A stretch of DNA of 32,000 nucleotides from Candidatus Bathyarchaeia archaeon (GCA_035528035.1 DATKZI010000037.1:81819-113818), one strand, 5' to 3'; counted from the stretch's first letter, positions 3,899-28,985 are shown. The notes: generated by a model not told the origin, from the sequence alone. Numbers and translations: made by a program.

Positions 3899-3973
3899 AC
3901 TTTTTTACAAAAAGAATACATTTGAACTCATAAGGTAATATAATGTTTATTTCTAGACGAGAGTGTAATCCTT

Positions 3974-5590: not shown

Positions 5591-5755
5591 AATCTAGCAA
5601 TCTTTTTGTAGTGAAATAATTTCATTTGTGTTAGTAACAAATAATAACGTAAAGTTTTAAGAGAATAAAAATATTTGAAATATGGATAAATTCTTAATAT
5701 CAAAGAAAAAAAGAAACGAGGATAATCTACAAGACTGATATTAGAGGTTGATGTC

Positions 5756-6145
5756 ATGAATATTGATAAAAACGCAAGATATATGAAATCCCATGAATGG
5801 GCAAAGAAAGAAGACGATTTATTTGTAATTGGTATTACCGATTATGCTCAAAGTCTATTGAAAGATATCGTTTATGTTGAACTTCCAACAGAAGGAACTA
5901 CTTTTCAAAGAGGTGATAAAGCAGCTGATATCGAATCAGTAAAAGCTGTTGAAGAATTAAAATCACCGTTATCAGGGGAAGTAGTAGAAGTCAATACTGT
6001 TTTAGAAGATTCAGCTGAATCAATCAATGAAGACCCCTACGGGAATGGTTGGTTTATAAAAATAAAACCATCAAATCCTTCTGAATTTAATGAGATGCTC
6101 ACTCCAGAAGCATATGAAAAATATCTTGAGACAATCGAACATTAA
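5756..6145 (+). CDS. gcvH: glycine cleavage system H protein
   Basis: 129 aa. Lipoyl-lysine motif ESVKAVEEL. Typical N-terminus YMKSHEWA. C-terminal DPYGNGWF. SD-like agaggt at 5743-5748. Confidence 0.92.
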   Translation: MNIDKNARYMKSHEWAKKEDDLFVIGITDYAQSLLKDIVYVELPTEGTTFQRGDKAADIESVKAVEELKSPLSGEVVEVNTVLEDSAESINEDPYGNGWFIKIKPSNPSEFNEMLTPEAYEKYLETIEH

Positions 6146-6168
6146 GGAAATGGAGAACTGATCTTTTC

Positions 6169-7551
6169 ATGAATACTACTAAGGAAGGATCAGCAAAGGA
6201 TATTCAAAAAGAAATGGAATCGTATTTGGAAATCAACAATGTTGATGAATTATTTGCTGATATACCAGACTCCATTCGCTTGAAAAAACCTCTAAAAATA
6301 GCTGGACCTTTATCAGAAAGAGATCTTTCACTTTATATAGATGAAGTTCTTTCCATGAATAAACCGGTAATTTCTTTTCTCGGTGGTGGAGCGCAAAATC
6401 ACTATATCCCTGCACTTGTCCAAGAAGTAATAACAAAACCTGAACTATTAAACGCTTATACTCCTTATCAACCTGAAGTTGCTCAAGGAATGTTACAAGG
6501 GTTATTTGAGTATCAAAGTTTGATTAGTGAAATCACAGGAATGAATGTGACAAATGCAAGTATGTATGATTGGGCTACTTCTATTGCTGAAGCATTATTA
6601 ATGTCCGTTAGACTTTCCACTAAAAGAAAAAAAGTACTAATTACTTCAAGTATTCATCCAGATAGACTTGCAGTAGTCGAAAATTATTTAGCTGGTCCAA
6701 AAATCAATTATGAATTAGTTGAATATGATGCTAAAACAGGGGAATTGAATCTTGCTGATCTAAAAGAAAAACTAACTGAAGAAATAGCAGCATTTTATTT
6801 TGAGAATCCTAATAGTTATGGTGTAATAGAAAGCCAAGCTGAAGATATAACTAAATTAGTCCATGCTGTAAATGCTTTTGTAATTGTAGGAGTTGATCCT
6901 ATTTCACTTGGCATACTTAAAGCACCGGCAGATTATGGTGCTGATATAGTCGTAGGTGAAGGACAAGGTTTAGGAAATAGCTTATCATTTGGTGGCCCTC
7001 ATTTTGGGTTCTTTTCAATTAAATATGATAAAAAGATTATTCGACAAATGCCTGGAAGGTTAGTAGGTTTAACAAAAACATATGATGGAAACCAAAGAGC
7101 ATTTGTTCTAACCTTATCCACTCGAGAACAACACATTCGAAGACAAGATGCTACAAGCAATATTTGTTCTAATCAATCAATACTTGCATATGGTGCTGGT
7201 GTTTATCTATCTCTACTCGGACCGGATGGTTTGAAGAAGACAGCTGAATATTGTTTACAAGCAGCTCATTATTTAGCTACAGAAATTAACAATTTAAAGC
7301 ATTTTGAGGCGCCTATTTTTTCCGGAGCTCATTATAATGAATTTGTTGTTAGAGTAACAAAAGGAACAATGGCTGAAGTTGAGAATAAATTAATCCAACA
7401 GGGATTAGTAGGTGGGTATACACTTGAGAAGTGCCATCCTGAATTGGGTGAAGTAGCAATCTTTTGTGTAACAGAAATGCATACCATGAATTCCATTAAC
7501 AAATTACTTACTGTTCTAATAGAAATGGACAAAGAGCTTGGAGGAAGATAA
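6169..7551 (+). CDS. gcvPA: glycine dehydrogenase (decarboxylating) subunit 1
   Basis: 460 aa. Conserved YTPYQPEVAQG and QREQHIRR-type segment (STREQHIRRQDATSNICSNQ). Lies between gcvH and gcvPB. Confidence 0.9.
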   Translation: MNTTKEGSAKDIQKEMESYLEINNVDELFADIPDSIRLKKPLKIAGPLSERDLSLYIDEVLSMNKPVISFLGGGAQNHYIPALVQEVITKPELLNAYTPYQPEVAQGMLQGLFEYQSLISEITGMNVTNASMYDWATSIAEALLMSVRLSTKRKKVLITSSIHPDRLAVVENYLAGPKINYELVEYDAKTGELNLADLKEKLTEEIAAFYFENPNSYGVIESQAEDITKLVHAVNAFVIVGVDPISLGILKAPADYGADIVVGEGQGLGNSLSFGGPHFGFFSIKYDKKIIRQMPGRLVGLTKTYDGNQRAFVLTLSTREQHIRRQDATSNICSNQSILAYGAGVYLSLLGPDGLKKTAEYCLQAAHYLATEINNLKHFEAPIFSGAHYNEFVVRVTKGTMAEVENKLIQQGLVGGYTLEKCHPELGEVAIFCVTEMHTMNSINKLLTVLIEMDKELGGR

Positions 7552-9094
7552 AGTGACAGACAAAAAACCATATAATCAAGCTTACTATCCTGAACCTTTA
7601 GTTTTTGAATTAGAAGAAACAAAATATCACAAATATTCTGCTCCTCAATTACCAGAAGAAATAGCAAAGAAAGTAAAAGACCCACAAAAGTTAATACCAA
7701 AAACTATGATTCGAACAGAACCTCCAAATCTTCCGAAATTAGCTGAATTCCAATTAGCACGACATTACTTACATTTAGCTCAAATGAATTTCTCGGTTGA
7801 CACTGGTTTTTATCCACTTGGAAGTTGCACGATGAAATATAATCCTAAAATAAACGATTTCATAACAATGGATCGTCGTGTAACAATGATTCATCCATTC
7901 CAACCTGCCAGAACAGTTCAAGGAAACATCCGTATTCTTTACGAAATTGAGCAAATGCTTAATGAAGTAGCAGGAATGGAAAGAACTACACTACAACCAT
8001 CAGCGGGAGCTCATGGTGAACTTACTGGGATTATGATTATTCGTGCATACCACTACGATCATGGTGAAGGTGAACAAAGAACTGAAGTTATTGTACCTGA
8101 TAGTTCACATGGAACAAATCCTGCAACTGTTGCAATGGCTGGATATAAGACCATAGTAATTAAATCAAAACCAAATGGTTTAGTAGATTTAGAAGCATTA
8201 AAAGCAGTAATTTCTGAAAAGACCGCTGCATTGATGTTAACTAATCCAAATACTTTAGGTCTATTTGAACAAGAAATATGTGAAATCGCAAAAATTGTTC
8301 ACGAAGTAGGTGGATTGTTATATTACGATGGAGCCAATTTTAATGCTATAATGGGTAAATGTCGACCAGGTGATATGGGATTTGATGCGATTCATTTCAA
8401 TCTACATAAAACATTTGCTACCCCACATGGAGGTGGTGGTCCGGGTGCAGGACCTGTGGGAGTTGTCAAAAAATTAGTTCCATATTTACCAAAACCAATG
8501 CCCGAATATGATAAAGCTTCTGGACAATATTACTTGAATTTCGATATGCCAAAGTCTATGGGTAAAATCAAAGGATTCTGGGGTAATTTTGGTGTGATAT
8601 TGCGTGCCTATGCTTATATACTATCATTAGGACCTAATGGCTTAAAAGAAGCATCAGAACAAGCAGTGCTTAACTCAAATTATCTGAAGAAGAAACTAAT
8701 GAAATTGGGTGGTTGGACTTTACCCTTTTCTCCTAATACACCAAGAAAACATGAATTTGTTCTTGAAGGTGAAACACTAAAAGAAGAAACAGGTGTAAGT
8801 ACAATGGATGTAGCAAAACGATTGCTTGATTTGGGCTACCACGCACCAACAGTTTATTTCCCATTAATTGTTCATGAAGCGCTAATGATAGAACCAACTG
8901 AAACAGAAAGTAAGAATACTTTAGATACTTTTGCTGAAACGATGGAACAAATCTTACGCGAATGTCGAGAAGATCCTGAAATACTTCACAATGCTCCACA
9001 ACATACTGCAGTAACTCGAGTTGATGAAGTTACAGCAGCTAAAGAACCAATATTATCATGGCAAATGTATAAGGAAAGGTTATCTCAAGAATAA
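7538..9094 (+). CDS. gcvPB: glycine dehydrogenase (decarboxylating) subunit 2
   Basis: PLP-lysine motif HFNLHKTF, then GGGGPG. The track start is TTG at 7538. GTG at 7553 is more likely: it has a strong SD ggagga at 7539-7544 and lies 1 nt after the gcvPA stop (7549-7551), which suggests translational coupling. Confidence 0.9.
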   Translation: MEEDKVTDKKPYNQAYYPEPLVFELEETKYHKYSAPQLPEEIAKKVKDPQKLIPKTMIRTEPPNLPKLAEFQLARHYLHLAQMNFSVDTGFYPLGSCTMKYNPKINDFITMDRRVTMIHPFQPARTVQGNIRILYEIEQMLNEVAGMERTTLQPSAGAHGELTGIMIIRAYHYDHGEGEQRTEVIVPDSSHGTNPATVAMAGYKTIVIKSKPNGLVDLEALKAVISEKTAALMLTNPNTLGLFEQEICEIAKIVHEVGGLLYYDGANFNAIMGKCRPGDMGFDAIHFNLHKTFATPHGGGGPGAGPVGVVKKLVPYLPKPMPEYDKASGQYYLNFDMPKSMGKIKGFWGNFGVILRAYAYILSLGPNGLKEASEQAVLNSNYLKKKLMKLGGWTLPFSPNTPRKHEFVLEGETLKEETGVSTMDVAKRLLDLGYHAPTVYFPLIVHEALMIEPTETESKNTLDTFAETMEQILRECREDPEILHNAPQHTAVTRVDEVTAAKEPILSWQMYKERLSQE

Positions 9095-13112: not shown

Positions 13113-15791
13113 TTAGGATTCGTCATCTTTTGAACTAGATGAATCATCTTCTTCTTCTTGTTTCTTATTATTTTCTTCAAGGGCTTTCCGTGCTTGAAGT
13201 TTTATTTCTTCTCGTTTAGCATCTTCTTCAACAATTTCCATTTCACGATTTACAAGAATTTCTAATATTTGATCTGAGTACTTGCCACATTGATCGATTA
13301 TTCGTTCAGCATCTAAAGTATCTGTATAAAATGCTTCTTCATTTCCTTTGATTATCGGTAAAACGGTAGCTGTCCATATTGCTTTAGCTTCTCCATAAAG
13401 TGATTGAGAATCTGCTGCAAATTCAGTAAGACCTTCTCGAGATGCAGTATTAATAGTATATTGAGTCATCTTATTTTTTAAAATATCATATAGTTGTTGT
13501 CGATAATTCTCTAATGCAGTAATAGCATTTTTCAAGGCATCTCTTTTCTTTTCCAATTGATCTGGTTTTTCAGGTTCTGGCTTTTCTGGGATTTTTTCAT
13601 CAACCTTATCTGATCCTCCTTTTTCACCTAGAACCATCTTTTTTGTTTCGATTAGATCTGATTGTTGAATCGTTTGCTTTTTCTTTATGATTGCATCTAT
13701 ATTATATCGTTCGTCTTTAAGAGAGCTACTTTTACTGGATTTGGTTTTATCAACTAACTCTATTTCAGTGCGTTCGAGCTCCTTGCGTTTGTTAGGATCT
13801 TCTGGTCGGAAACCTCTCACGATTAAAAGAGTGATAAGTAGAAAGAATAAAACTGTTCCAAAACCACTTAACAAACCTATTATTAAATTCCTATAGTCTT
13901 TCGGTACTACTGTAACTGGGAAATCTAAAGCATCAAGAGGGTTAGTGCCATGATAATACTCATAACCATCAGAAAAATTATCGCCATCAGTATCCCAGTC
14001 TGAAGCATTTGTAAGAATTCTGGATTCTTCTTCAGTAGTTAATAAATCATTGTCTATATCATCTGTAATATTATCTTTAGTAAGAGGATCAAGAACACTA
14101 TATATTTCGTATCCATCTGAAAGTGTGTCTTGGTCGCTATCAATACTTAGGGGATTGGTATGATAATCATTTACCTCTTGTCCATCAGTTAAAGAATCAT
14201 GATCAGTATCTGCTATATAGGGATTGGTTCCAGCATTAAACTCTTGCAAATTAGACAATCCATCTGAATCCAAATCATAGCTGGCATCAATAGCATTATT
14301 AGGATTGAGCCCATAAAAAATTTCAAAATTGTCAGGCATCAAATCAGAATCGCTATCAGATGAAATCGGATTTGTTTCATAAATTAGTATTTCATCAGAA
14401 TCAGTTAGTGTATCACCATCTGTATCTTGATTGTAGGGATTAGTAAAATAGGTATTTATTTCATCAAAATCTGATAAACCATCTTGGTCAGAATCAATTA
14501 TTTCGTATCCCAAATATACCTCTTTTTTATCATCAAAATATTGAGTATAAGAAATATATATTGTACCATAATTATCAGCAGCAATTGCAGGATCAAAAGC
14601 ATCCACCAAACCTGAGCTTACAAGCTGTGAGTTTTCCCAGCTAGTGGAGCTGCTAAATCTTTGTCGTAAATAGATATTTGTTTTTCCAGCAGAAAATCGC
14701 TCAAAAACTAAGAAAGTATTACCAAAGGTATCTGAAATAATATCATAATCACCATTTGGTGCAAGATAAGTGCTTATAGTAGATGGTGATGACCAACCAC
14801 TTTCAATAGATTTAGCAATTGCTTTTGAATAATAGAGATTGGTTGAAGTTCCATCATCTTTGAAAATTAAATGAAGATTTTTAGATTCTCTTTCATAGGT
14901 AATTCTAGGATTAATTGGATTATATGCAACAGTGGTTATTTTTTCCTCTGCAATCCAAGAATTTCCACTTTCTTTATAGGAATAATATAACTCATAATCG
15001 TTTGTACGGTTATCAGTCCAGATTAGGTGTAAAGTACTATTTTCATCAATAGTTAAAGCAGGTGGAGAATTTCCTACAGCTGATGCACCGTTGGTAATTC
15101 TAGTAAATGGTGTATCCCAAGAACCAACATTTGGATCAAAGAAGCTATAATATAAGTCACCATTTGGGTTATCTGATTTATCTATATGAACGAGATGAAC
15201 TATACCATTTTTGTCTGTTATACAAACAGGACCAGTGCTATTTCCACTATTTAATAATAAACTAGATTTAGGTTGAATGGTATTTTCATTAAGAAAAGTC
15301 ACTTCACTCAATTCATAATTATCTGTTAAATATTCCTCAAAAACAAAATGAATAGTTTCATCATCATCTGGTGCAGCAGAATAACCTCTAAGGACTGTAC
15401 CATCAATTGCTTCCACTTGTAGAATGTTTGATGACCATGAATTAGTTTTTGAACCATAACTATAATACAAAGTACTTACTGCACTTGGGGTATAGGGTTG
15501 AAATTGATCTATCCAAGAAAGATAGATATTACCCGTTTCATTATTATATACTAAATTGGTTTGAGTTGAATTCCATCCTGTTGAAGAAACTCTCTCGAGA
15601 GATTCAAACTCAAATACTTGAGGTACGAATTTAATATTATTATTAAAATCAGTAAAGCTGCACGTTTGATAAGTTGAAGAATTACTATTAAGTATAGGAA
15701 TAATTGAGAAAATAATTAGAATAAAAATTAATCCAACAATTCTCTTACTATTAAACTGAGATAGTTTGAAATTACTTATATGTGTCATCAA
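13113..15791 (-). CDS. type-I membrane surface protein: propeller-like ectodomain + 8 TSP3-like repeats + TM + 234-aa cytoplasmic domain
   Basis: N-terminal hydrophobic signal/anchor (aa 17-34). Seven units of about 50 aa (aa 87-430) with the recurring pattern h-H-[LIF]-[IV]-[WFH]-x-D ... LYYS ... (S/G)-W-(S/D/E). Eight units of DxDxDxLxDxxE...NP (aa 433-623). TM NLIIGLLSGFGTVLFFLLITLLIV (aa 635-658) followed by RGFR. K/E-rich helical C-terminal region ending EEEDDSSSSKDDES. The likely true start is ATG at 15788; the track uses TTG at 15791. Confidence 0.8.
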   Translation of the reverse strand: MMTHISNFKLSQFNSKRIVGLIFILIIFSIIPILNSNSSTYQTCSFTDFNNNIKFVPQVFEFESLERVSSTGWNSTQTNLVYNNETGNIYLSWIDQFQPYTPSAVSTLYYSYGSKTNSWSSNILQVEAIDGTVLRGYSAAPDDDETIHFVFEEYLTDNYELSEVTFLNENTIQPKSSLLLNSGNSTGPVCITDKNGIVHLVHIDKSDNPNGDLYYSFFDPNVGSWDTPFTRITNGASAVGNSPPALTIDENSTLHLIWTDNRTNDYELYYSYKESGNSWIAEEKITTVAYNPINPRITYERESKNLHLIFKDDGTSTNLYYSKAIAKSIESGWSSPSTISTYLAPNGDYDIISDTFGNTFLVFERFSAGKTNIYLRQRFSSSTSWENSQLVSSGLVDAFDPAIAADNYGTIYISYTQYFDDKKEVYLGYEIIDSDQDGLSDFDEINTYFTNPYNQDTDGDTLTDSDEILIYETNPISSDSDSDLMPDNFEIFYGLNPNNAIDASYDLDSDGLSNLQEFNAGTNPYIADTDHDSLTDGQEVNDYHTNPLSIDSDQDTLSDGYEIYSVLDPLTKDNITDDIDNDLLTTEEESRILTNASDWDTDGDNFSDGYEYYHGTNPLDALDFPVTVVPKDYRNLIIGLLSGFGTVLFFLLITLLIVRGFRPEDPNKRKELERTEIELVDKTKSSKSSSLKDERYNIDAIIKKKQTIQQSDLIETKKMVLGEKGGSDKVDEKIPEKPEPEKPDQLEKKRDALKNAITALENYRQQLYDILKNKMTQYTINTASREGLTEFAADSQSLYGEAKAIWTATVLPIIKGNEEAFYTDTLDAERIIDQCGKYSDQILEILVNREMEIVEEDAKREEIKLQARKALEENNKKQEEEDDSSSSKDDES
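13923..14495 (-). repeat. array of 8 thrombospondin-type-3-like acidic Ca-binding repeats (coding, in frame)
   Basis: Examples: DSDQDGLSDFDEINTYFTNP, DTDGDTLTDSDEILIYETNP, DLDSDGLSNLQEFNAGTNP, DTDHDSLTDGQEVNDYHTNP, DTDGDNFSDGYEYYHGTNP. Period is 22-27 aa. Confidence 0.8.
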
Positions 15792-16019: not shown

Positions 16020-16511
16020 ATGGCCGATCAAGAAATTAAATGCCTCATAGAAGGCGGGAAAGCAAGCCCTGCACCACCTTTAGGTCCAGCTCTAGGCCCG
16101 ACAGGTGTTAACATTGGTTTGGTTATTCAAAAATTGAACCAAGAAACGTCTGGATTTGCAGGGATGAAAGTTCCAGTAACAATTATTATTCATCAAGATA
16201 GAACATTTGATCTTAAAGTAGGAATACCAACTACAGCAGGTTTAATCCTAAAGGAAGCAGGTTTAAAAATCGGTGGTAAAGGTTCAACCGAAGAAGTTCC
16301 AGAAGAGCCTTTTGTCGGAAATATTACCATGGATCAAATATTAAAGATTGCAGATATAAAGCGATCAGGAAGTTTTGCTTCTTCAACTAAAACCCTTGTA
16401 AAAGAGATTTTAGGAACAATGCTAAGTTGTAAGGTAACCTGTGATGGTAAAAATCCTCGTGATGTTCAAAAAGAAGTCGATAAAGGTGTCTATGACAGTA
16501 AATTCAAGTAA
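16020..16511 (+). CDS. rpl11: 50S ribosomal protein uL11
   Basis: GGKASPAPPLGPALGPTGVNI motif, 163 aa. SD-like aaggtg at 16008-16013. Confidence 0.95.
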   Translation: MADQEIKCLIEGGKASPAPPLGPALGPTGVNIGLVIQKLNQETSGFAGMKVPVTIIIHQDRTFDLKVGIPTTAGLILKEAGLKIGGKGSTEEVPEEPFVGNITMDQILKIADIKRSGSFASSTKTLVKEILGTMLSCKVTCDGKNPRDVQKEVDKGVYDSKFK

Positions 16512-16705
16512 TTAAAGGATTTACTGACACAACCCAAACTTTTATTTTTCCATTCATTTTTGAAGAACCTAGTGCATGCAAGTGTTGCATGTCGAGTGAA
16601 AAAAATGTGAATAAAACCATCTAGGAATAAGTCTTAATAATAGCAAACATCTTGGTTGGTTTTCAAGTTTCAATATAAGTTAAATTCATTTGAAACTAGT
16701 AAGAG

Positions 16706-18841
16706 GTGTTGAAAATTAAAAAATATCCCGGCTTGAAATACTTATTCAAGCCACAGAGTATCGCAGTAATCGGTGCTTCAAAAAAACCTGGCAAAATTGG
16801 CTATGAAATAATGGATAACATAATATCCTATGGATTTAAAGGAGAACTCTATCCCATCAATCTCAGTGAAACAGAAATCCTTGGTAAAAAGGTTTACAAA
16901 ACAATAACCGAAGTTCCAGGAGAAATTGATTTCGCAGTTATTTCTGTACCAGCAAAATTCGTTCCTGAAGTTATGGAAGAATGTGGTCAGAAAGGCGTCA
17001 AAAGCGCTGCTGTAATTACTAGTGGCTTCGGAGAAGTTGGTGATTTTGAAACTGAAGAAAAATTAGTGGAGATAGCTGAAAAATACAATATGCCTTTTAT
17101 AGGACCAAATATTTTCGGAATATATTATGCTCCTACAAATCTAAATGCTTCTTTTGGTCCAGCGGATGTTAAACCAGGAAAATTAGCTTTTATTACACAA
17201 AGTGGAGCACTTGGTATTGCATTGATGGGTTGGACAATTACTAATAAGATCGGCTTATCATCAATAATTAGTGTTGGAAATAAGGCTCAAATAGGTGAAA
17301 GCGAACTACTTGAAAATTACCTCGAAAATGATCCAAACACTAAAGCGATTTTATTATATGTTGAAGGACTACATGATGGCAAAGCATCTATGGACATTTT
17401 CAAAAAAGTTGGCTTAAAGAAACCAATAATAGCTCTTAAATCTGGTCGTTCTGTTCGAGGGGCAGTTGCAGCAGCGAGTCACACAGGTAGCTTAGCAGGT
17501 TCAGATAAAGTATATTCAGCTGCTTTCAAACAAAGTGGTGTTCTAAGAGCTATAGATGCTTCTGAAGCTTTTGATTGGGCAAGATGTATTACAAATAATC
17601 CACGACCAAAAGGTCCTAACGCTCTTATCATAACAAATGGTGGTGGTGTGGGTGTTATGGCAACAGATGCTTGCGAGGATTACAATCTTGAATTATATAA
17701 TGATCAAGAGAAACTCAAAGAATTATTCTTCAAACCAGATATAATGCCATCTTATGGCTCTACCAAGAATCCTGTAGATATTACAGGTGGTGGTGGTGAA
17801 TTAGCTTACAAGAAAGCTATTGAAGCTGCTTTTGAAGCTGAAGAAATTGATTCCATTATAGTTCTTTATTGTCAAACTGCTACCACAAATCCTGATCTTC
17901 TAGCTGATTATATTATAGAAGTCGATAATAAATACAATAACAAGAAACCTTTTGTTGTTGCTAGCATTGGTGGCGAAGCTGTAGAAGAAATGGTTGATAA
18001 ATTAAATGAGCATGAAATCCCCACATACGATCTACCTGAAAAAGCTATTTCATCATTAAGTGCTTTATATCGCTGGTCTAATTTTGTTTCACGATATGAA
18101 AAAATAGGAAAATCTAAACCACTAAAATTACCATTAGAACAAATAAATGCTATAATTGCTCAAGTAAGAAAAGAGGGTAGAGTTCAAATGCTCGAGCATG
18201 AAGCAAAAGAGGTATTCAAATTATGCAATTTAGATGTTCCAGCATTTGGTTTAGCTAAAACGAAGAATGAAGCGATTCAACATGCAAAGAATGTTGGTTT
18301 TCCAGTTGTCATGAAAATTGTTTCTGAGGATATCATTCATAAAAGTGATGCTGGTGGTGTAGTAGTTAGCATTAAAGATACTAAAGAAGTAGAAGAAGCA
18401 TTTGATAAGATAATGAAGAATGCTAAAGCTTACAAATCTGATGCAAATATCAGAGGAATTTTAGTATCAAACATGGCTCCAAAAGCTACAGAAGTCATCA
18501 TCGGTGTAACAAAAGATCCTACTTTTGGTCCTACAGTAATGTTTGGATTGGGTGGTATCTATGTTGAAATACTCAAAGATGTAGTTTTCAGAGTTGCCCC
18601 ATTCCCTCTTGAAGATGCTCAAGATATGATTGATAGCATTAAAACTAGAGATATGCTTTATGGTGTAAGAGGACAAAAACCAGCAGATATTGAAGGATTG
18701 AAGAATGCCATTTATGTTATTAGCGAATTAGTTTCACAAATTGATGATATTAAGGAATTAGACATCAATCCATTATTTGCCATGGAAGACAAAGCTTGTG
18801 TTGTTGATGCAAGGATAACCTTAACAAGTAAAAAAGAGTGA
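16706..18841 (+). CDS. acd: acetyl-CoA synthetase (ADP-forming), fused alpha-beta form
   Basis: N-terminal CoA-binding segment PQSIAVIGAS. Phospho-histidine loop AAASHTGSLAGS. C-terminal ATP-grasp segment (VVMKIVSEDIIHKSDAGGV). The start codon is GTG at 16706 or TTG at 16709, overlapping or just after agaggtg. Confidence 0.85.
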   Translation: MLKIKKYPGLKYLFKPQSIAVIGASKKPGKIGYEIMDNIISYGFKGELYPINLSETEILGKKVYKTITEVPGEIDFAVISVPAKFVPEVMEECGQKGVKSAAVITSGFGEVGDFETEEKLVEIAEKYNMPFIGPNIFGIYYAPTNLNASFGPADVKPGKLAFITQSGALGIALMGWTITNKIGLSSIISVGNKAQIGESELLENYLENDPNTKAILLYVEGLHDGKASMDIFKKVGLKKPIIALKSGRSVRGAVAAASHTGSLAGSDKVYSAAFKQSGVLRAIDASEAFDWARCITNNPRPKGPNALIITNGGGVGVMATDACEDYNLELYNDQEKLKELFFKPDIMPSYGSTKNPVDITGGGGELAYKKAIEAAFEAEEIDSIIVLYCQTATTNPDLLADYIIEVDNKYNNKKPFVVASIGGEAVEEMVDKLNEHEIPTYDLPEKAISSLSALYRWSNFVSRYEKIGKSKPLKLPLEQINAIIAQVRKEGRVQMLEHEAKEVFKLCNLDVPAFGLAKTKNEAIQHAKNVGFPVVMKIVSEDIIHKSDAGGVVVSIKDTKEVEEAFDKIMKNAKAYKSDANIRGILVSNMAPKATEVIIGVTKDPTFGPTVMFGLGGIYVEILKDVVFRVAPFPLEDAQDMIDSIKTRDMLYGVRGQKPADIEGLKNAIYVISELVSQIDDIKELDINPLFAMEDKACVVDARITLTSKKE

Positions 18842-18877
18842 ATTCATTAGCACAATTCACTCCTTTTAATTTTTTTT
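18838..18877 (+). terminator. hairpin plus T7 tract at the end of acd
   Basis: gtgaatt (18838-18844) pairs with aattcac (18854-18860) around a 9-nt loop. The stem includes the TGA stop. It is followed by tccttttaattttttt, with T7 at 18871-18877. Confidence 0.5.
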
Positions 18878-18987
18878 CAAGGAAATAAATATTAAATCAT
18901 TTTAATTTTATCTCATTCATCTTAGATAAATTAAAAAATAGAGAAAATACAAGTCATCTTGGTAGATAGGTCAACAAGAAAGCACAG

Positions 18988-20178
18988 GTGAACAAAATTT
19001 CCTATAGTTTCTCTTATCATAATGGTCTTCAATTTAATTTTTCTAACAATAAAAAACTGCTTATAGATGGAAGCACAACAAAAATTTCTCCTAAAACAAC
19101 ATCCATTGTTAGTCATGCTCATTCTGATCATTTTTCTGTAATGAATTCAAATATTCCTACTTATGCAACACAAGAAACAATTGATTTGTATTTATGTCAA
19201 AAAACAGGTAATACTAGAGGAATATTTCATCCAATGAGATTTAATGAAAAGTTTGAGCTAGAAACTGATTTTGATGACCTTGAAGTAACTTTAGTATCTT
19301 CTGGTCATATATTAGGTTCTGCTTCAATTTTATTGGAATTAGCAGGGAAAAAAATCCTGTTTTCAAGTGATATTGGTGGAAAAGGATTATTAACTATTAA
19401 AGAACCATTAGCAAAACCCGAAGTTGATACGTTAATAGTTGAAGCAACATTTGGCTCACCTGAAATAAGTTTTCAACCTAGGGAAGAAATTTCTATGGAT
19501 ATTTTAAAATGGGCTGCTAATGCAATCAAAGAAAAAAGAAATGTTGTTATTTCTGCTGGAAGAATAGGTTCTGCTCAAGAGCTCATTAAACTTTTTAATG
19601 ATTTCACTAATTTACGAGTAATTACTCATGGAGATGTTTCTCCTCCATCTGAGGTATACAAAAAACATGATATAAATTTGGAATTCAAGGATTCAAAATC
19701 TGATGAAGGACGAGAAATTGTGAAAAGTGGAGAAGCAGTAATCATTCAATCTCGAGAAAGAAAAATTGTTCCTTATTTTTTGAGTGAACATATAAAATAC
19801 CGTAGTGCAATTGTTACTGGAATGGCTTCAAGGTTTAGCTATAAGGACTTTGATGCATCTTTCCCATTATCCTCACATGCAAGTTTCGATGAACTATTGG
19901 ACTATATTAGTAAAGTAACACCTAAAAAGGTCTTTACACTTTATGGTTTTGAAAAGAAATTAGCTAAAGCGATAAGTAATGAATTGCAAATACCTGCGAT
20001 ACCATTAAAAGATAAAAGTCTTGAAGAAGGATTAGAAAATCTGGTAGAAATACCTCATTTGAAGAAAACACAAAACATTAATCTTTTAACTGAAAAACCA
20101 TTATTACCCGAAGAACAACAAAAGAAACCTAGTCTTCAAAAAGATAAAACGCTAGATGATTTTTTTAGAAAGAGATAA
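18988..20178 (+). CDS. metallo-beta-lactamase fold, beta-CASP family nuclease
   Basis: MBL motifs LLIDGS, SHAHSDH (HxHxDH), SGHILGSA and FSSDIG. Then VEATFG and the beta-CASP insert (VVISAGRIGSAQELIKLF). Motif B is LSSHAS. The motif C position reads TLYGF, with Tyr where RNA-acting members have His. A low-complexity K/E/Q/P tail ends in KTLDDFFRKR. GTG start. Confidence 0.75.
   Translation: MNKISYSFSYHNGLQFNFSNNKKLLIDGSTTKISPKTTSIVSHAHSDHFSVMNSNIPTYATQETIDLYLCQKTGNTRGIFHPMRFNEKFELETDFDDLEVTLVSSGHILGSASILLELAGKKILFSSDIGGKGLLTIKEPLAKPEVDTLIVEATFGSPEISFQPREEISMDILKWAANAIKEKRNVVISAGRIGSAQELIKLFNDFTNLRVITHGDVSPPSEVYKKHDINLEFKDSKSDEGREIVKSGEAVIIQSRERKIVPYFLSEHIKYRSAIVTGMASRFSYKDFDASFPLSSHASFDELLDYISKVTPKKVFTLYGFEKKLAKAISNELQIPAIPLKDKSLEEGLENLVEIPHLKKTQNINLLTEKPLLPEEQQKKPSLQKDKTLDDFFRKR
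20137..20166 (+). other. PIP-box-like C-terminal motif (QKDKTLDDFF) in the beta-CASP nuclease
   Basis: L-x-x-F-F lies 3 residues from the C-terminus and follows a roughly 55-aa low-complexity linker. This matches the hydrophobic core of the PCNA-interacting peptide consensus Qxx[LIM]xx[FY][FY]. The Gln is at -5 rather than -3. Confidence 0.4.
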
Positions 20179-20197
20179 TTCATCGATGTGAAATATT

Positions 20198-20614
20198 GTG
20201 TCAAATTGTTTTGAGTTCGATCTACTTGCTATACAGCCAAGTCAACTATATATTAGTAAGAAAAAACTTGCAGCTGTTCAAGAAAAAATCAATCCTAAAA
20301 ATATTAATTCAATAGGGATTATTCCAATAAAGAAATTGGATGATGATATAATTTTTAGTGATGGTCATACTCGAGCATTTGCTGCATATTTAGCTGGTTA
20401 TAGAACAATCTTATGTGAAATGGAAACTGAAGAATTAGATTGGGAAATGTATAAGGAATGTGTCAAATGGTGTAAGGAGGAAAGAATTTTCTCTATAGCT
20501 GATTTTAAAACTCGTATTATTAGTCATCAAGATTATGAACAATTATGGTATAAACGATGTGAAATAATGCAAAATGAAATAATTGCTAAACGAGAAAAAT
20601 TGAAAGAAAAATAA
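20198..20614 (+). CDS. small ParB/sulfiredoxin-fold (ParB N-terminal-like) protein
   Basis: IQPSQLYISKKKL ... IIPIKKLDDDIIFSDGHTRAFAAYLAGY resembles the ParB-like nuclease/Srx signature (DGHHR..A....G). 138 aa. GTG start 19 nt after the nuclease stop, same strand. Confidence 0.5.
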   Translation: MSNCFEFDLLAIQPSQLYISKKKLAAVQEKINPKNINSIGIIPIKKLDDDIIFSDGHTRAFAAYLAGYRTILCEMETEELDWEMYKECVKWCKEERIFSIADFKTRIISHQDYEQLWYKRCEIMQNEIIAKREKLKEK

Positions 20615-20641
20615 TAACATACCAATAATTAGTTCCAAAAA

Positions 20642-21505
20642 TTATTTCTCTTTTGTTATATTGTCATATTTTATGTCTCTGGCTTTTACAACTTCTACAT
20701 CTCTAGTAGAACAACCATCTTCAATAATTTTAATCAAATCAGCGTTTAAACTATTACGATCAATTATAGCCCATTTTACTTTCTCAACTGTTTTATCGAT
20801 CATTTGTTCAACAATATTTATTGTTAGATTATTTTTATGATATTTAGGTAAAATATGACTGATAGCTACCGGTGTAAGATCCATGATTTCATTGAATCGC
20901 GTAGTATAATGACCCCCACCAAAACAAATACTAGGAATGATTTCTGGATTTTCTTTCTGTAAACATATATCCATAATTGTTTTAGCAACAGCCAATAATG
21001 CATTTGTGTTTTGATATTCTATTTCGGTACTTCCAACTTCAATATAAATTAAAGGCGTTTTCATACTTGTAGGACCATGATGAGTTGCCTCAACAGTTAC
21101 ATCAAAATCAGGTAATTCTAACTCATTCTGATATACTTTCAAATGTAAATAAGATTCTCTTATCGCACGACAAGAACCATATGCTAGTTCAAAGGGGTTT
21201 CCACCATGGCTATTATCAGCTCCTAAATTGCCTGTTACATGAGTTAAAAGACTTGGTTTATTAGCTTCACTTTTATGACGAGAACCAAATAATAATAGAT
21301 CAGCATTTAATTGGTCACAATGATCTGACTCAATAACATCTTTTCCTGAAAAAACTAATCTTATATTTTTATGTTTTAGAATAGGTGTTCCATCAAATAA
21401 TTCACCGGTCTCTTCCCAAACCCATCCTTGCAATAAAGTTTCCCTAATATTTCTACCACAAATATTTTGCTTTGTTGTAATTATTACTGGATTCTTAAGA
21501 TTCAA
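20642..21505 (-). CDS. dtdA: D-aminoacyl-tRNA deacylase, archaeal type (DTD2)
   Basis: FGSRHKSEANKPSLLTHVTGNLG, VEATHHGPT, IEVGSTE, FGGGHY and SHILPKY all match the DTD2 family as remembered from the Pyrococcus enzyme. TTG start in the track. Confidence 0.9.
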   Translation of the reverse strand: MNLKNPVIITTKQNICGRNIRETLLQGWVWEETGELFDGTPILKHKNIRLVFSGKDVIESDHCDQLNADLLLFGSRHKSEANKPSLLTHVTGNLGADNSHGGNPFELAYGSCRAIRESYLHLKVYQNELELPDFDVTVEATHHGPTSMKTPLIYIEVGSTEIEYQNTNALLAVAKTIMDICLQKENPEIIPSICFGGGHYTTRFNEIMDLTPVAISHILPKYHKNNLTINIVEQMIDKTVEKVKWAIIDRNSLNADLIKIIEDGCSTRDVEVVKARDIKYDNITKEK

Positions 21506-21601
21506 AAGTGGATCACCAAAGAATAACTATCTCAATTAAGCTCAAACAAATTACATGATAGATTTAATCTTAAAATTATTCATTGTAACTTAAAAGAAAA
21601 T

Positions 21602-21641
21602 AAAAAAAAATTAAAATTAGTGGGCTAAAAAGCACCACTAA
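21602..21641 (-). terminator. hairpin plus T9 tract downstream of argF
   Basis: 10-bp stem with one bulge: ttagtgggct (21617-21626), loop aaaa, agc-a-ccactaa (21631-21641). It starts 6 nt after the argF stop. On the minus strand it is followed by ttttaattttttttt (A9 at 21602-21610 on the plus strand). Confidence 0.55.
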
Positions 21642-21646
21642 AAAAT

Positions 21647-22588
21647 TCAGTCACCCATAAGGGCTAACATGACTGCTTTTTGTGCATGTTTTCGATTTTC
21701 AGCTTCATCAAAAACAACACTCTGTTTGCTATCAATTACATCATCAGTAACTTCATATCCTCTATGAGCTGGTAAGCAGTGGAGAAAGATAGCATCAGCT
21801 TTTGCATGTCCCATAAGTTTCTTATCAACACTAAAATCTTTGAAAGCCTTTAATCGTATTTCTTTCTGAGTCTCATCACCCATAGATATCCAAGTATCTG
21901 TATAAACTACATCAGCATTCTTTACTCCTGAAGGAATATCGCTGGTAATCTCTAATTTAGTTCCATGCTTTTTGGCAAGTTCTTGTACTTTTGTTGTAAT
22001 TTCTTTATTTGGTCGATAAATATCTGGGCAGACTACTGAAACATCCATACCCATTTTCGTACAACCGATCATTAAAGAATGGCAAACATTATTACCATCA
22101 CCAACGTAAACAAGTTTCAAACCTTTTAGTTTGCCTTTGTGCTCGCGAATAGTTTGAAGATCTGCTAGAATTTGACAAGGATGATAAAGGTTGCACAAAC
22201 CATTAATAACTGGTATAGTCGAAAATTCAGCGAGAGAGGTAAGAGTTTCGTGCTTATACACTCTAGCCATTATTCCTCCTAAATAGCGAGAAAGGACCTG
22301 AGCAGTATCAGCTGGGGTTTCCCCTGTACCCACAAGTTGGGTATCACGAAAGCTAAGGAAAAGTGGTTGTCCACCTAATTCCCAAATTCCAGTTTCAAAA
22401 GAAACTCTTGTACGGGTAGATGTTTTCTCAAACATCATTCCTAAACTCTTCTTGAGAGGCTTACGATCTGGATGTCCACCATATTTCTTGTACTCTTCTT
22501 TTAATTCATCTGCAAGATCCAGAAGATAAAGAATTTCTTCTGCAGTAAAATCTAGAAGAGTAAGTAAATGACGGCCTTTTAAGTTCAT
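21647..22588 (-). CDS. argF: ornithine carbamoyltransferase
   Basis: STRTRVSFE (carbamoyl-phosphate site), HPCQ, DTWISMG (ornithine site) and HCLPAHRG. ATG start with SD gagga 6-10 nt upstream. Confidence 0.9.
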   Translation of the reverse strand: MNLKGRHLLTLLDFTAEEILYLLDLADELKEEYKKYGGHPDRKPLKKSLGMMFEKTSTRTRVSFETGIWELGGQPLFLSFRDTQLVGTGETPADTAQVLSRYLGGIMARVYKHETLTSLAEFSTIPVINGLCNLYHPCQILADLQTIREHKGKLKGLKLVYVGDGNNVCHSLMIGCTKMGMDVSVVCPDIYRPNKEITTKVQELAKKHGTKLEITSDIPSGVKNADVVYTDTWISMGDETQKEIRLKAFKDFSVDKKLMGHAKADAIFLHCLPAHRGYEVTDDVIDSKQSVVFDEAENRKHAQKAVMLALMGD

Positions 22589-22958: not shown

Positions 22959-25900
22959 ATGAACATTAAAAGGAACCTAATACTAAATCTGAGTGTTTTA
23001 TTCATCTGTAGTATACTATTAAATATTTATATTTCTTATAATCAAATATCAGCTAATTCCAATTTACCAATTCAAAGTGACATTTATTCGACTAACGATA
23101 CAATAGATGATAAAACCATATTCAATATAAACCAACAGATTGATGGTTCCTACACGGAAGGATATACAACTAATTATGAAGATATAGGAAATTATGGTTT
23201 TGAAGCACCTGTACTCATCAAAGAAAGTCAACCTACATTAGATGCAAAAATAGCAGTAGATGGAAGTAATAATGCTCATATATTTTGGGTAGGAAAAACG
23301 GGGGATTATTGGATACTCTATCATGTAATGAGATTTTTTGAAAATGGTTCATGGAGTACCATTGATAACTTTGGAAAAACAGATAAAATTTTTAGCGGGG
23401 TACTTGATGTAGAAACAGACTTCTTGGGTAGAATTCACTTAGTTTGGCTTCTTAATAGTAATATATACTATATGTTGTATGATAATATATCTAAAACTTG
23501 GTCTAACAAAGTAATAGTCGGGTCTGGTTCAGATTTAGATCTCTCTGTAAATGAAAATGGTTTGCCAAGAATTAGTTTTATTAAAACTTTAGAATCATAC
23601 TACTATGTTTATAGATATGCAAGATTGAAAGATGATTTAGTAAATTGGGAAACAACTGATATTCCTATAGGAATTAGTACTTATGATACGAGGGCTAGAA
23701 ATTCAGCACTTTTAGTAACAGATGAAAACGGAAAAGAATGTACTTATTTCTTCTTTGGGATGACATTTCGTTCAGGTTCATATTCTCATACAGCCTATTA
23801 TGTTCGATATGCTATATCTTTGAAAGAAACTTATAATAGTCCTTTTACTATTAATAATAATTTTATTCAATATAATATCCCTTATGCTTTTAATGTCTTG
23901 CCAAAACCACAAATACTTGGATCAAATGATGACAATCTTCACTTATTTTATATTTTACCAGGAGATTCAGATACATTATATTTGACATATCAAAGAAGAA
24001 ATTCTGATAAAGAGTGGGAACCAGGGGAAACATTATCAGATAAAATTGCTTTGAATTGTGATACTGTGTCTGCTATAGATAATGCTACAGGAAAATTGAT
24101 CTATATGTGGACTCATACAACCTATATAACTGAAACAAAAGCAGCATTGTATCTGAAGACTTTTTCACCGGTAACAGAAACTTGGTCAGATGATATATTA
24201 TTTTTAAATAATTATAATTATACCCAATACCCCGATTTTGATCTTGATAATTATGGTAATATGCATATGATTTGGTTTGATCAAAAAGACGATACCAAAA
24301 GATTGTACTATAAAATGGGTTGGATAGACTCAGATGAAGATGGATTGTATGATTTTGAAGAAAGAGATATTTATGGAACTGATCCTTATAATTCCGATTG
24401 TGATGGTGATCAATTTTTAGATGGAGAAGAAATAGCTCTTGGATTTGATCCCTTTAATCCTGATGAAGATTCAGATGGTATGGGAGATGGTTTTGAGTAT
24501 CATTATGGATTAGATCCATATACAAATGATTCCTATGATGATCTAGATAATGATTTACTTCTTAACATCGAAGAATATTACGCTAATTCATTTCCAAATA
24601 ACAATGATTCAGATGATGATTTAGTATCAGATTATTTAGAGGTGAAAATTTATTATTCTGATCCAAGAGACACAGACTCAGATGACGATGATATTAATGA
24701 TGGAATAGAGATTCTTATTCTGAGCTCAAACCCCAATTCAAATGATTCTGATAATGATACAATGACTGATTGGTATGAATGGGAATATGGATTAAATATC
24801 AATGTTAATGATACACTTGAAGATCCAGATTTAGATGGACTGATCAATCTTCTGGAATTTGAAAATGATCTTGAACCAGATAATCCCGATTATGAAGGGG
24901 ACGGCCTAAATGACTATGAGGAAGTAGTAATTTGGTTCACTAATCCAAAGAAGTATGATACAGACAAAGATGGTCTATGGGATGGTCGTGATGAAGTGTA
25001 TAATTATGGTACCAACCCATTAAAACCTGATACAGATGATGATTTAATAAATGATAAAACCGAAATAGAAAAAGGGTTCGATCCATTAAACAATGATACA
25101 GATTATGATTCACTACCTGATGGTTACGAATGGATATTTCATTTAGACCCATTGGATCCCTCAGATGGTTTATTAGATAATGACCACGATGGACTAAATA
25201 ATTACGAAGAATTTTTATTATGGACAAATCCATTTTTGGTTGATTCCGATGGAGATAGATTTACTGATTTAGAGGAATTATCTTTAGGTTGTGATCCTGC
25301 AAAGTGGGATACAGACGGTGAAGGTATTGATGACTATAATGAGATTGTTGTACTTAAGACTAACGTTACGAATCCTGATACTGATTACGATTTGTTAAAT
25401 GATTATCTCGAGGTTCATAAATACAATTCAAACCCTCTCGTTCAAGACACAGATGGTGACGGTATTACTGATGGAATAGAAGTTTATACTTATGGAACAC
25501 ATCCAAGCTATCGTGATTCAGATCATGACGGTATAGATGATGATGTAGAGCTTTTTATATTTGGTTCTTCTCCAATCTTAGTGGATACAGATTTTGACGG
25601 CATGGATGATTATTTTGAATGGCTCTATGATCTTAATCCTGTAGTTGATGATTCTTATTTAGATGCCGATTCTGACGGTATTAGTAATGGCGAAGAATTT
25701 CTGTATAATGCAAATCCATTAATTAGTGATACTGATCAAGATGGTTTAACCGATTTTGAAGAAATAGCTATTTATTTTACCAAACCTAACTTGAAAGACA
25801 CAGATCAAGACGGGCTCACTGATTTTGATGAAATCGCAGTTTATCATACTGTCCCACTTGATTTAGACACCGATGATGATCGTATTTCTGATGGAGAGGA

Positions 25901-26231
25901 AATAGCACTTGGTACTAATCCTTTATCAAGCGATACAGATATGGATGGTATTTCTGATGCTGATGAGCTATCTGATGGTACCGATCCATTAGATGCCTCA
26001 GATAACAAGAAATTTGCTCGTCGTAATAATATCCTAATATCCTTTAGTTTAATCATTGCAGGGGTACTTGTCTACTATTTCAGTCCAATATTAATCTCAA
26101 AATTACGTCGTGAAGAAGAAATCAATTGGATTCGTGAAGGTATCAAGAAGCGCAATGCTAAAAGTAATAGATTTGTCTCTAATAATTTAACTGTTGATTC
26201 AACAGATACTGTTAATAAATCTGAAATCTAA
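22959..26231 (+). CDS. type-I membrane surface protein, paralogue of 13113-15791: propeller-like ectodomain + 24 TSP3-like repeats + TM + 44-aa tail
   Basis: N-terminal signal/anchor (aa 6-27). Seven units (aa 104-455) with the same h-H-h-h-W ... YY ... W-S pattern, e.g. AHIFWVGK, RIHLVWLL, NLHLFYIL, KLIYMWTH, NMHMIWFD. 24 DxDxDG-type repeats (aa 457-1015). TM ILISFSLIIAGVLVYYFSPILI followed by SKLRREEE. Confidence 0.8.
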   Translation: MNIKRNLILNLSVLFICSILLNIYISYNQISANSNLPIQSDIYSTNDTIDDKTIFNINQQIDGSYTEGYTTNYEDIGNYGFEAPVLIKESQPTLDAKIAVDGSNNAHIFWVGKTGDYWILYHVMRFFENGSWSTIDNFGKTDKIFSGVLDVETDFLGRIHLVWLLNSNIYYMLYDNISKTWSNKVIVGSGSDLDLSVNENGLPRISFIKTLESYYYVYRYARLKDDLVNWETTDIPIGISTYDTRARNSALLVTDENGKECTYFFFGMTFRSGSYSHTAYYVRYAISLKETYNSPFTINNNFIQYNIPYAFNVLPKPQILGSNDDNLHLFYILPGDSDTLYLTYQRRNSDKEWEPGETLSDKIALNCDTVSAIDNATGKLIYMWTHTTYITETKAALYLKTFSPVTETWSDDILFLNNYNYTQYPDFDLDNYGNMHMIWFDQKDDTKRLYYKMGWIDSDEDGLYDFEERDIYGTDPYNSDCDGDQFLDGEEIALGFDPFNPDEDSDGMGDGFEYHYGLDPYTNDSYDDLDNDLLLNIEEYYANSFPNNNDSDDDLVSDYLEVKIYYSDPRDTDSDDDDINDGIEILILSSNPNSNDSDNDTMTDWYEWEYGLNINVNDTLEDPDLDGLINLLEFENDLEPDNPDYEGDGLNDYEEVVIWFTNPKKYDTDKDGLWDGRDEVYNYGTNPLKPDTDDDLINDKTEIEKGFDPLNNDTDYDSLPDGYEWIFHLDPLDPSDGLLDNDHDGLNNYEEFLLWTNPFLVDSDGDRFTDLEELSLGCDPAKWDTDGEGIDDYNEIVVLKTNVTNPDTDYDLLNDYLEVHKYNSNPLVQDTDGDGITDGIEVYTYGTHPSYRDSDHDGIDDDVELFIFGSSPILVDTDFDGMDDYFEWLYDLNPVVDDSYLDADSDGISNGEEFLYNANPLISDTDQDGLTDFEEIAIYFTKPNLKDTDQDGLTDFDEIAVYHTVPLDLDTDDDRISDGEEIALGTNPLSSDTDMDGISDADELSDGTDPLDASDNKKFARRNNILISFSLIIAGVLVYYFSPILISKLRREEEINWIREGIKKRNAKSNRFVSNNLTVDSTDTVNKSEI
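24327..26003 (+). repeat. array of 24 thrombospondin-type-3-like acidic Ca-binding repeats (coding, in frame)
   Basis: Examples: DSDEDGLYDFEE, DTDKDGLWDGRDE, DSDGDRFTDLEE, DTDGDGITDGIE, DSDHDGIDDDVE, DTDQDGLTDFEE, DTDQDGLTDFDE, DTDMDGISDADE. Each is followed by a hydrophobic/aromatic stretch and (T/S)NP or DP. Period is 21-27 aa. Confidence 0.85.
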
Positions 26232-26318: not shown

Positions 26319-26513
26319 TCACTTTTTAGAATCCCTTAAGAGTTTCCCATTTGAGCCAATATTTTCAGGTTCATTTTCATGTATTATAACTATTATATGT
26401 GCAAAATCATCTGGATAACCATAGGCTTCTTTTAATGCTTTATCCATCAATTCAACTAATTTTCTTTTTTGTTCAATATTTCTTTTCGGTCCTTCAATCG
26501 TAATTAATGGCAT
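26319..26513 (-). CDS. 4-oxalocrotonate tautomerase family protein
   Basis: 64 aa. N-terminal MPLITIEG, giving the catalytic Pro1 after Met removal. Length is typical of the family. Confidence 0.75.
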   Translation of the reverse strand: MPLITIEGPKRNIEQKRKLVELMDKALKEAYGYPDDFAHIIVIIHENEPENIGSNGKLLRDSKK

Positions 26514-28721: not shown

Positions 28722-28985
28722 TTATTGATGAATTTTTATATTTTCATCGGAAGCTATTTCTTTTAGAATTGGATTTTTTAATTCAGAATCACTAATCTCT
28801 TTTATTTTAATTACTTCTAAATGTTGACGATCTATACGGTGCTTACTACCAATTCTTGAATAAGCTTGTTCTAAGGCATCTTTCTCTGAAACAGCTCTAA
28901 CATCAACTTCGTGTTTTTCTTTTCTAGTTAGTGGTTTTTTTTCGAATGTTATTCTATAATTCTTTACTTGCACTTCTTTTGGCAT
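28722..28985 (-). CDS. rplX: 50S ribosomal protein LX (L18Ae/eL20 family)
   Basis: 87 aa. Segment AVSEKDALEQAYSRIGSKHRI. Sits in the conserved position between aIF6 and prefoldin alpha. Confidence 0.7.
   Translation of the reverse strand: MPKEVQVKNYRITFEKKPLTRKEKHEVDVRAVSEKDALEQAYSRIGSKHRIDRQHLEVIKIKEISDSELKNPILKEIASDENIKIHQ

Follow-up and report, generated by a model that had tools for sequence, protein, structure and literature searches.

Two predicted stalked surface proteins with fixed numbers of TSP3 units in Heimdall-group Asgard archaea

Why should two proteins that share one order of domains, and whose genes are close neighbors, carry tandem acidic repeats in very different numbers? 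The question is raised by a stretch of archaeal DNA of 32,000 nucleotides (GCA_035528035.1, DATKZI010000037.1:81819-113818, deposited as Candidatus Bathyarchaeia archaeon), which was analysed over its full length and is referred to here as the window. Gene A (22959..26231, + strand), defined by its open reading frame (ORF) and translation, encodes a predicted type I membrane surface protein of 1090 aa and belongs to a group of orthologues that we call family A. Gene B (13113..15788, - strand), defined by its ORF and by public gene calls, lies 7168 bp away in divergent orientation and encodes a distant paralogue of the same architecture (family B); its reading frame at 13113-15791 would yield 892 aa from a TTG codon, and the public calls start at the ATG at 15788, one codon later, for a product of 891 aa. 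An initial annotation had described A as a second, collinear paralogue of B with a repeat array "expanded to 24" units. As explained below, both unit numbers are fixed among relatives, and A is probably a surface protein of Asgard (Heimdall-group) archaea, in which a non-catalytic, binding propeller head is carried on a bacterial-type thrombospondin type 3 (TSP3) stalk of fixed length.

The relatives of A and B carry the labels of Candidatus Heimdallarchaeota, in most cases, or of metagenome-assembled genomes of the Asgard group. A search with full-length A returned the window protein and nine full-length orthologues (42-70% identity, 1049-1138 aa), and a search with B returned more than 28 orthologues (827-961 aa). 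The window's A shows the features by which family A is recognized, namely a collinear full-length match, 24 units and a C-terminal transmembrane (TM) helix. A hidden Markov model (HMM) of the A head added the members P0263, P0273, P0268, P0004 and P0007. With the A head as sole query, a word-indexed homology search came back empty and an exhaustive phmmer search gave 405 matches, including a few collinear ones over the full domain; it was through the array that the full-length search recovered the family. A scan of contigs, whose matches were mostly generic TSP3 patterns and which is not a family census, yielded two more full-length relatives (L007 and L008). The alignments discussed here are A1 (11 sequences of family A) and A2 (29 sequences of family B), and repeat units were counted in 16 A and 29 B proteins. 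Our literature searches (Asgard archaea with TSP3, and PF18884) returned no description of this family, and A represents a new family built from known and widespread parts: a BNR-type propeller, bacterial TSP3 repeats and a TM anchor. What takes the locus beyond routine annotation are the frozen counts of 24 and 8, a stalk that is better conserved than the head, the synteny of the pair and a cytoplasmic domain in B that has no known relative.

Unit number and conservation of the two arrays

The array of A occupies aa 457-1015 (24327..26003, +), where a regular expression and manual parsing delimit exactly 24 D-x-D-x-D units that start at aa 457 through aa 992 and have a period of 22-27 aa. The same parse of B finds 8 units, with starts from aa 433 to aa 600, in an array at aa 432-623 (13920..14495, -), and thus reproduces both counts of the initial annotation. 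The Pfam model PF18884 (TSP3_bac) scores 47.6 bits on A and 44.4 bits on B against a cutoff of 25, and is above threshold in 11/11 members of family A and 29/29 members of family B. Asp and Glu make up 30% of the A array, which has hardly any Lys or Arg and 2 Cys in 559 aa; the B array has no Cys. In the AlphaFold2 (AF2) model of A, each unit forms one short helix, with a predicted local distance difference test score (pLDDT) of about 85-89.

Unit number is nearly invariant within each family. There are 24 units in 15 of the 16 A proteins, the remaining one having 23 and one gap of double length, and 8 units in 28 of the 29 B proteins, the remaining one having a doubtful extra match upstream. 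The span of the array is likewise constant, at 164-171 aa in B and within about 30 residues in A. In alignment A1 all 24 units align by position, with D1, D3, D5, D9 and E12 invariant in nearly every unit and many residues that are specific to single units also conserved; alignment A2 shows the same position-by-position conservation for the 8 units of B. Identity within family A is 55-77% in the stalk and 22-64% in the head (22-35% among most orthologues); in family B the corresponding values are 50-79% for the stalk and 33-74% for the head. A frozen repeat number in a stalk that is better conserved than the head is the reverse of what is usual for surface proteins rich in repeats. As judged from these comparisons, the difference between 24 and 8 is older than the split of the sampled lineages and has been fixed since. 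The word "expanded" may stand as a description of that difference, and the recent or variable expansion that it implies is rejected, since unit number is fixed in each orthologous group, every unit is conserved by position across orthologues, and the comparison among relatives gives no hint of an expansion still under way.

Tandem Repeats Finder detected no tandem array at the DNA level in either gene; the TSP3 units are old and have diverged at the nucleotide level. Two units of A, 21 and 22 (25734-25844, +), are unusually alike, as DTDQDGLTDFEEIAIYFTKPNLK and DTDQDGLTDFDEIAVYHTVPLDL. Every orthologue has the two of them, so their duplication is old; unit 21 is also the best DNA match to unit 1 of B (114 nt at 74.6%). 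In the family A members P0153, P0154, P0155 and P0002 a 14-aa insert, 'G.Y.P.NP.ANATGY.FT', which holds an N-x-T sequon, lies between TSP3 units, and P0014 has it at another site; the insert is absent from the window's A (alignment A1, columns 765-785 and 525-540).

The units follow a common grammar, in which the array of simple "T" units (D.D.D...D..E....[TS].P...) is interrupted by "M-N" pairs, each consisting of D.D.D.M.D..E...GL.P...D... followed by D.D.DGL.N..E. Both arrays start T-T-M-N, and units near or at their ends correspond (B1=A1, B3=A3, B8=A24). Because of this shared grammar and the matching end units, we attribute a common origin to the two arrays.

In having ~23-aa acidic units (D-x-D-x-D-G...D..E) in a long tandem array, A resembles the bacterial TSP3 surface proteins of PF18884, such as CglD and MtsD of Myxococcus. 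Membership of A in either of these two groups is rejected on score: the NCBIfam models NF033765 and NF047639 give 88.4 bits (cutoff 400) and 72.4 bits (cutoff 800), respectively, and match in the TSP3 region only. One of these models is named for a lipoprotein and the other for a protein of cell-cell cohesion, and A differs from them with its unit number frozen at 24 (8 in B). To our knowledge, neither CglD nor MtsD has a BNR propeller at its N-terminus or a TM anchor at its C-terminus. With the eukaryotic TSP type 3 repeats (TSP/COMP), A has in common an extracellular tandem array of an Asp-rich motif, presumed in A to bind calcium, and the relation is at the level of that motif only; at E <= 1 TSP3_bac is the sole Pfam model that matches, and the model for the eukaryotic repeats does not. 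The eukaryotic repeats contain conserved cysteine pairs, in contrast to the nearly cysteine-free array of A, which also has no C-terminal L-lectin domain.

Heads, anchors and kinship of the two proteins

The order of parts proposed for both proteins (signal or anchor, head, TSP3 array, TM helix, tail) was recovered throughout, as were the strings at the head-array junctions, YYKMGW|IDSDEDG in A and YLGYE|IIDSDQDG in B. The N-terminal segment of A (aa 1-33; 22959..23057, +) has a hydropathy peak of 2.36 and is predicted to be a signal peptide or signal anchor. The head follows at aa 74-456 (23178..24326, +), and beyond the array a TM helix (aa 1023-1049; 26025..26105, +; hydropathy 2.01) leads into a basic, 44-aa cytoplasmic tail (26106..26228, +; alignment A1, columns 1170-1200). 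The corresponding parts of B are the head at aa 63-430 (14499..15602, -), the TM helix at aa 633-659 (13812..13892, -; hydropathy and AF2) and a cytoplasmic helical domain at aa 742-885 (13134..13565, -; AF2 and orthologue alignment). By hydropathy, the hydrophobic segments are aa 5-27 and 1023-1049 in A and aa 13-40 and 634-663 in B. The AF2 models, which were made with orthologue alignments and have a mean pLDDT of 79 for both proteins, agree with this division. The model of A has a helix at aa 5-27, a low-confidence linker, an all-beta region at aa 74-456, 24 short helices and a long helix at aa 1015-1076 that includes the TM segment; that of B is all-beta at aa 63-430, with short helices across the 8-unit array, the TM helix at aa 633-659, low confidence at aa 680-741 and long helices at aa 742-885. 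In the TM helix of A, I1027, Y1039 and P1043 are invariant in alignment A1, and 7 of its 11 sequences share the tail motif E..W[IV][RK][EQ]GI..R..KS. No NCBIfam or Pfam model for PGF-CTERM or a similar C-terminal sorting signal matched gene A, whose C-terminus, a TM helix and then the tail, does not point to an archaeal S-layer protein or archaeosortase substrate.

The tails of A and B, neither of which matches a Pfam family even at E <= 10, differ as proposed in length, with 44 aa in A vs ~230 aa in B. The difference goes beyond length, since the cytoplasmic part of B holds a helical domain of about 145 aa that is conserved. AF2 places its helices at aa 742-773, 776-781, 784-813 and 821-885, and block pLDDT is mostly 74-91. 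A linker that is poorly conserved and modeled with low confidence precedes it; among more than 28 orthologues the domain is 36-79% identical, vs 18-35% for the linker. The motif of the domain is TASRE.LTEFA.DSQ.LY.EAK.IW..T.LP.IKG...DTLEAE.IID.C. The domain has no sequence match in Pfam or PDB; the B-family profile gave a single weak match in PDB (7c7r, E 8.5e-6), which lies in the TSP3 region.

Each head consists of seven blade-like units of the pattern "G-x-h-H-h-h-W ... h-Y-Y ... W-S", as the initial annotation had described; a unit HMM finds them in both proteins and places the blades of A at aa 94, 146, 192, 247, 312, 365 and 421. The AF2 model of the A head is all-beta, with block pLDDT mostly 70-90. 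In Foldseek comparisons with PDB its best matches are the Photorhabdus lectins PHL and PLL (6rgr, 5mxe and 5c9o; E 8e-12 to 9e-11), followed by the rhamnose-glucuronate lyase 7esk, sialidases and PL24 lyases (overall E 8e-12 to 1e-7, at a TMt score of about 0.6). The B head, modeled as a seven-bladed BNR_4-like propeller, matches 7esk, 5muk and 5mvh (TMt 0.61-0.66), of which the last two are glycoside hydrolases, and also sialidases. No Pfam propeller model matched any of the 11 A-family members tested. BNR_4 (PF15892, E <= 0.01) matches 17/29 members of family B, with a best E of 1.3e-9, and the window's own B is unmatched, while the structural matches to 7esk, 5mvh and 5muk speak for the fold; BNR_2 matches 2/29 members of family B and none of family A. 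The A head belongs to the superfamily of propellers with the BNR/sialidase fold.

The residues that are invariant in the heads of both families are structural D, H, W, Y and G positions that recur from blade to blade. Among the aligned sequences (11 A and 29 B), neither head has an invariant Arg, Glu or Lys, and no His, Arg or Tyr is invariant outside the repeated blade motif; the Arg triad of sialidases is thus absent. The seven-bladed BNR_4/GH145/PL42 propellers and GH33 sialidases share the fold and the 'x-H-h-h-W ... Y-Y ... W-S' blade with the heads (Foldseek E 1e-10 to 1e-12, TMt 0.55-0.66), from which they differ in that the window's A and B reach no BNR Pfam model and have neither the Arg triad nor another conserved polar constellation. 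GH33 sialidases are six-bladed propellers with an Arg triad, a nucleophilic Tyr/Glu pair, an acid/base Asp and canonical Asp-boxes. As read from the sequence, the Asp-boxes (S-x-D-x-G-x-T-W) are reduced to 'x-W-S/E' in the heads. Membership of GH33 was rejected, since seven blades were counted and no catalytic residues are conserved, although the fold is similar. PHL and PLL are non-enzymatic, sugar-binding propellers that are 10-14% identical to A in sequence and, unlike A, are soluble and have no stalk or anchor.

How closely are A and B related? A full-length BLASTP comparison gave one collinear stretch (A 326-585 / B 305-563, E 2e-31), which spans the final three blades, the junction and five to six TSP3 units at the start of the array; the heads by themselves align over about 125 aa, again in the last three blades, with 25% identity and E 1e-4. 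The seven-blade unit HMM of B scores 24.0 bits on the A head (best of 400 shuffles, 14.2), and the reverse comparison gives 20.0 bits (best of 400 shuffles, 11.3). Profile comparison of the heads with hhalign gave probabilities of 98-99%, with 99.4% (E 5.5e-21) in global mode and an E of 9e-15 in local mode, vs an E of about 0.48 for reversed and column-shuffled controls. Several shifted registers are significant, as expected for propeller repeats; in the best of them the heads are out of step by one blade, and the fourth blade of A, which is aberrant, is passed over. The similarity of the two proteins is hence not confined to their acidic repeats, because the heads are homologous as well. Homology of every module, which the term "paralogue" implied, is borne out; closeness is not, as the heads are about 21% identical and the head HMMs score 200-350 bits on generic bacterial BNR-type repeat proteins ("GNVHVVW-D-RDGN-EIYY") and 0-63 bits on the other family. 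On these alignments, A and B are separate, old orthologous groups and anciently diverged relatives. The functional diversification that had been suggested for them is plausible in view of the many genomes in which the two forms are conserved together.

Proposed function and competing explanations

In the interpretation that we favor, the N-terminal signal or anchor would take the gene A protein through the Sec pathway, the acidic 24-unit stalk would keep the head away from the membrane, and the C-terminal TM helix and short basic tail would anchor the protein. Each TSP3 unit presumably chelates Ca2+ through D-x-D-x-D...D..E, and the stalk would then be a rigid spacer of calcium-dependent length. 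The head would bind a ligand, either a glycan or a protein, and not cleave it; this part of the proposal draws on the missing set of conserved catalytic residues, on a fast-evolving head that is carried on a slowly evolving stalk, and on the lectins as the best structural match. B, with a stalk one third as long, may couple the outside of the cell to the inside by means of its conserved cytoplasmic helical domain. The constancy of each stalk length across the lineage suggests that what is selected is how high the head stands above the membrane.

Cultured Asgard archaea have no surface layer (S-layer), and show either a layer of amorphous protein or complex proteins that protrude at the surface from a single membrane (bioRxiv 10.1101/2025.11.06.686947; PMC9834061); Asgard surface proteins have also been proposed to mediate contacts between cells that bear on how eukaryotes arose (PMC9834061; bioRxiv 10.1101/2025.11.06.686947). 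A and B might be components of such a non-crystalline protein coat, and the locus offers two conserved, syntenic and easily recognized candidates for it, with heads at two predicted, fixed and calcium-dependent heights. A working analogy can be drawn with integrin alpha and Vps10/sortilin-type receptors, which A recalls in its propeller head, long stalk, presumed calcium dependence, single TM segment and short basic tail with a conserved motif. A differs from these receptors in having no FG-GAP or VPS10 Pfam match and in a stalk of TSP3 units, not of Ig-like domains, and we know of no beta-subunit partner for it.

Several points weigh against this interpretation. Ca2+ binding and the geometry of the stalk are presumed from the unit motif, and the predicted template modeling score of AF2 (0.51) makes the overall shape of the array unreliable. 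N-glycosylation sequons are not enriched over shuffled sequences, a result that is in itself neutral for a surface protein. A place in the coat that cryo-ET has shown is plausible on circumstantial grounds, and the cultured species may not carry these families. All of the members are annotated as hypothetical and are known from sequence alone. Many fold relatives of the heads are enzymes (sialidases, 5muk/5mvh, 7esk and PL24 lyases), and the missing invariant polar residues in the 11 + 29 aligned sequences are suggestive of a head without catalytic function and are no proof of it.

The last two points bear on the possibility that A and B are surface-tethered, glycan-active enzymes, such as sialidase-, GH145- or PL42-like hydrolases or lyases, for which the TSP3 array would be a mere linker. 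The structural matches, which include 7esk, 5muk, 5mvh, many GH33 sialidases and PL24 lyases, are in keeping with such a role, as are the BNR_4 matches in family B and the names "exo-alpha-sialidase" and "BNR-4 repeat-containing protein" that some relatives carry. These names come from annotation and not from experiment, however, and the closest structural matches of A are lectins with no enzymatic activity. Neither the Arg triad nor any other invariant Arg, Glu or Lys is found in the two heads; divergence of the A head to 22-35% identity among most orthologues, on a conserved stalk, would be unusual for an enzyme core. We regard an enzymatic role as unlikely. Less likely again, and to our minds clearly improbable, is that the two architectures were assembled twice by domain shuffling, from a BNR-type propeller and a TSP3-TM stalk, and are not whole-gene paralogues. 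Shuffling of this kind is suggested by the many Asgard proteins that join other heads (DUF2341, beta-helix, caspase, SBBP and LVIVD) to TSP3 arrays, by the fact that each head resembles generic bacterial repeat proteins more closely than it does its counterpart, and by the best hhalign register, which is one blade off. Arguing for descent from one ancestral gene are the single collinear BLASTP stretch across the junction, the common T-T-M-N start with its corresponding terminal units (B1-A1, B3-A3 and B8-A24), and the occurrence of A and B on either side of the same conserved block in several genomes.

A different kind of alternative concerns the 7-kb block between the genes, for which the initial annotation raised the possibility that the TSP3 arrays, being inverted relative to each other, are recombination substrates that flip it. 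The arrays do share short, similar stretches, and the two DNA strings that had been quoted exist (14458-14489, as the reverse complement, and from 25734), with differences at 4 of 33 positions. Both strings encode the peptide motif DQDGL[ST]DF[DE]EI, which accounts for the similarity of the DNA. The two genes have no exact word longer than 14 nt in common, and their best alignment is the 114-nt match at 74.6%; one arrangement is found in 8/8 contigs with the identical protein, and L001, L002 and L003 keep all of it, as L004 does in the A-proximal part that is covered. With so short a shared word and constant gene order and orientation, inversion by the arrays is rejected, and we assign it almost no probability. 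Returning to the binding head on a fixed stalk, a bolder version of that interpretation would make the 24- and 8-unit stalks (3:1) calcium-dependent rulers that hold heads in two tiers and scaffold a coat in place of an S-layer, with B as a true transmembrane receptor for integrin-like adhesion and coupling, whose cytoplasmic helical domain would pass on to the cell interior such surface events as contact with a partner cell or a polymer. We think this version rather unlikely, and somewhat more so than an enzymatic role; if true, it would mean that the archaea most closely related to eukaryotes have an integrin-like system.

Gene order and neighboring genes

Between A and B lies a housekeeping block (16020..22588; Pfam assignments) that encodes L11, an ADP-forming acetyl-CoA synthetase (ACD), proteins of 396 and 138 aa, the D-aminoacyl-tRNA deacylase DtdA and an Asp/Orn carbamoyltransferase. 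The conserved order is Macro - B(-) - L11 - ACD - the 396- and 138-aa genes - DtdA(-) - carbamoyltransferase(-) - A(+) - (DinB) - FtsY - prefoldin - L18Ae - eIF6. The whole A-B arrangement is kept in L001, L002 and L003, where A is 70%, 48% and 45% identical to the window's A, respectively. In L004 (A 48% identical) the stretch that was fetched keeps the part from ACD to A, and the downstream flank differs. The 8 public metagenome contigs on which the identical A protein has been called have one arrangement, the same order is present in L087-L089, and A and B occur on one contig in at least five genomes. The window has a GC content of about 32% and encodes eIF-6, prefoldin alpha, the archaeal D-aminoacyl-tRNA deacylase, the ADP-forming acetyl-CoA synthetase, L11 and an FtsY-like GTPase of the SRP54 type; Rfam and tRNA scans of it found nothing.

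One more distant member of family A, P0013 (42% identity), is encoded outside the L11-ACD block, directly after a gene for a 920-aa protein with an FtsX domain. FtsX-domain and A-family genes overlap by 4 nt in L005 (1036-3798 / 3795-7007) and L006 (2263-5025 / 5022-8234), which suggests co-transcription with an ABC-type permease. In the block itself, the genes for the 396-aa (18988-20178, +) and 138-aa (20198-20614, +) proteins belong to no firm family and lie between ACD and DtdA in all of L001-L004; the larger protein gives a weak metallo-beta-lactamase/RMMBL signal (E 5e-4). In L004 the otherwise conserved block has an insertion, a gene (2930-7432) for an S8 peptidase of 1500 aa that carries a CARDB domain, and a type I CRISPR-Cas cluster (Cas6, Cas3, Cas5, Cas7/DevR and a Cas8-like protein) takes the place of the downstream flank.

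Nearer the start of the window, a gene for a MoxR-type AAA+ ATPase overlaps the start of a VWA-domain gene (208-2155, +), as a classic MoxR-VWA pair. A flavoprotein/4Fe-4S gene and, after it, a gene for a 538-aa protein with DUF6513, pterin-binding and DUF4346 domains lie at 2990-5590 (+). The genes for glycine-cleavage H, P1 and P2 proteins come after the latter gene (5756-9094), and the cluster may be related to C1 or folate-like metabolism. Two small genes, each for fewer than 100 aa, were placed by transfer of coordinates from L087: a 64-aa member of the 4-oxalocrotonate tautomerase family just downstream of A (26319-26513, -) and L18Ae between prefoldin and eIF6 (28722-28985, -).

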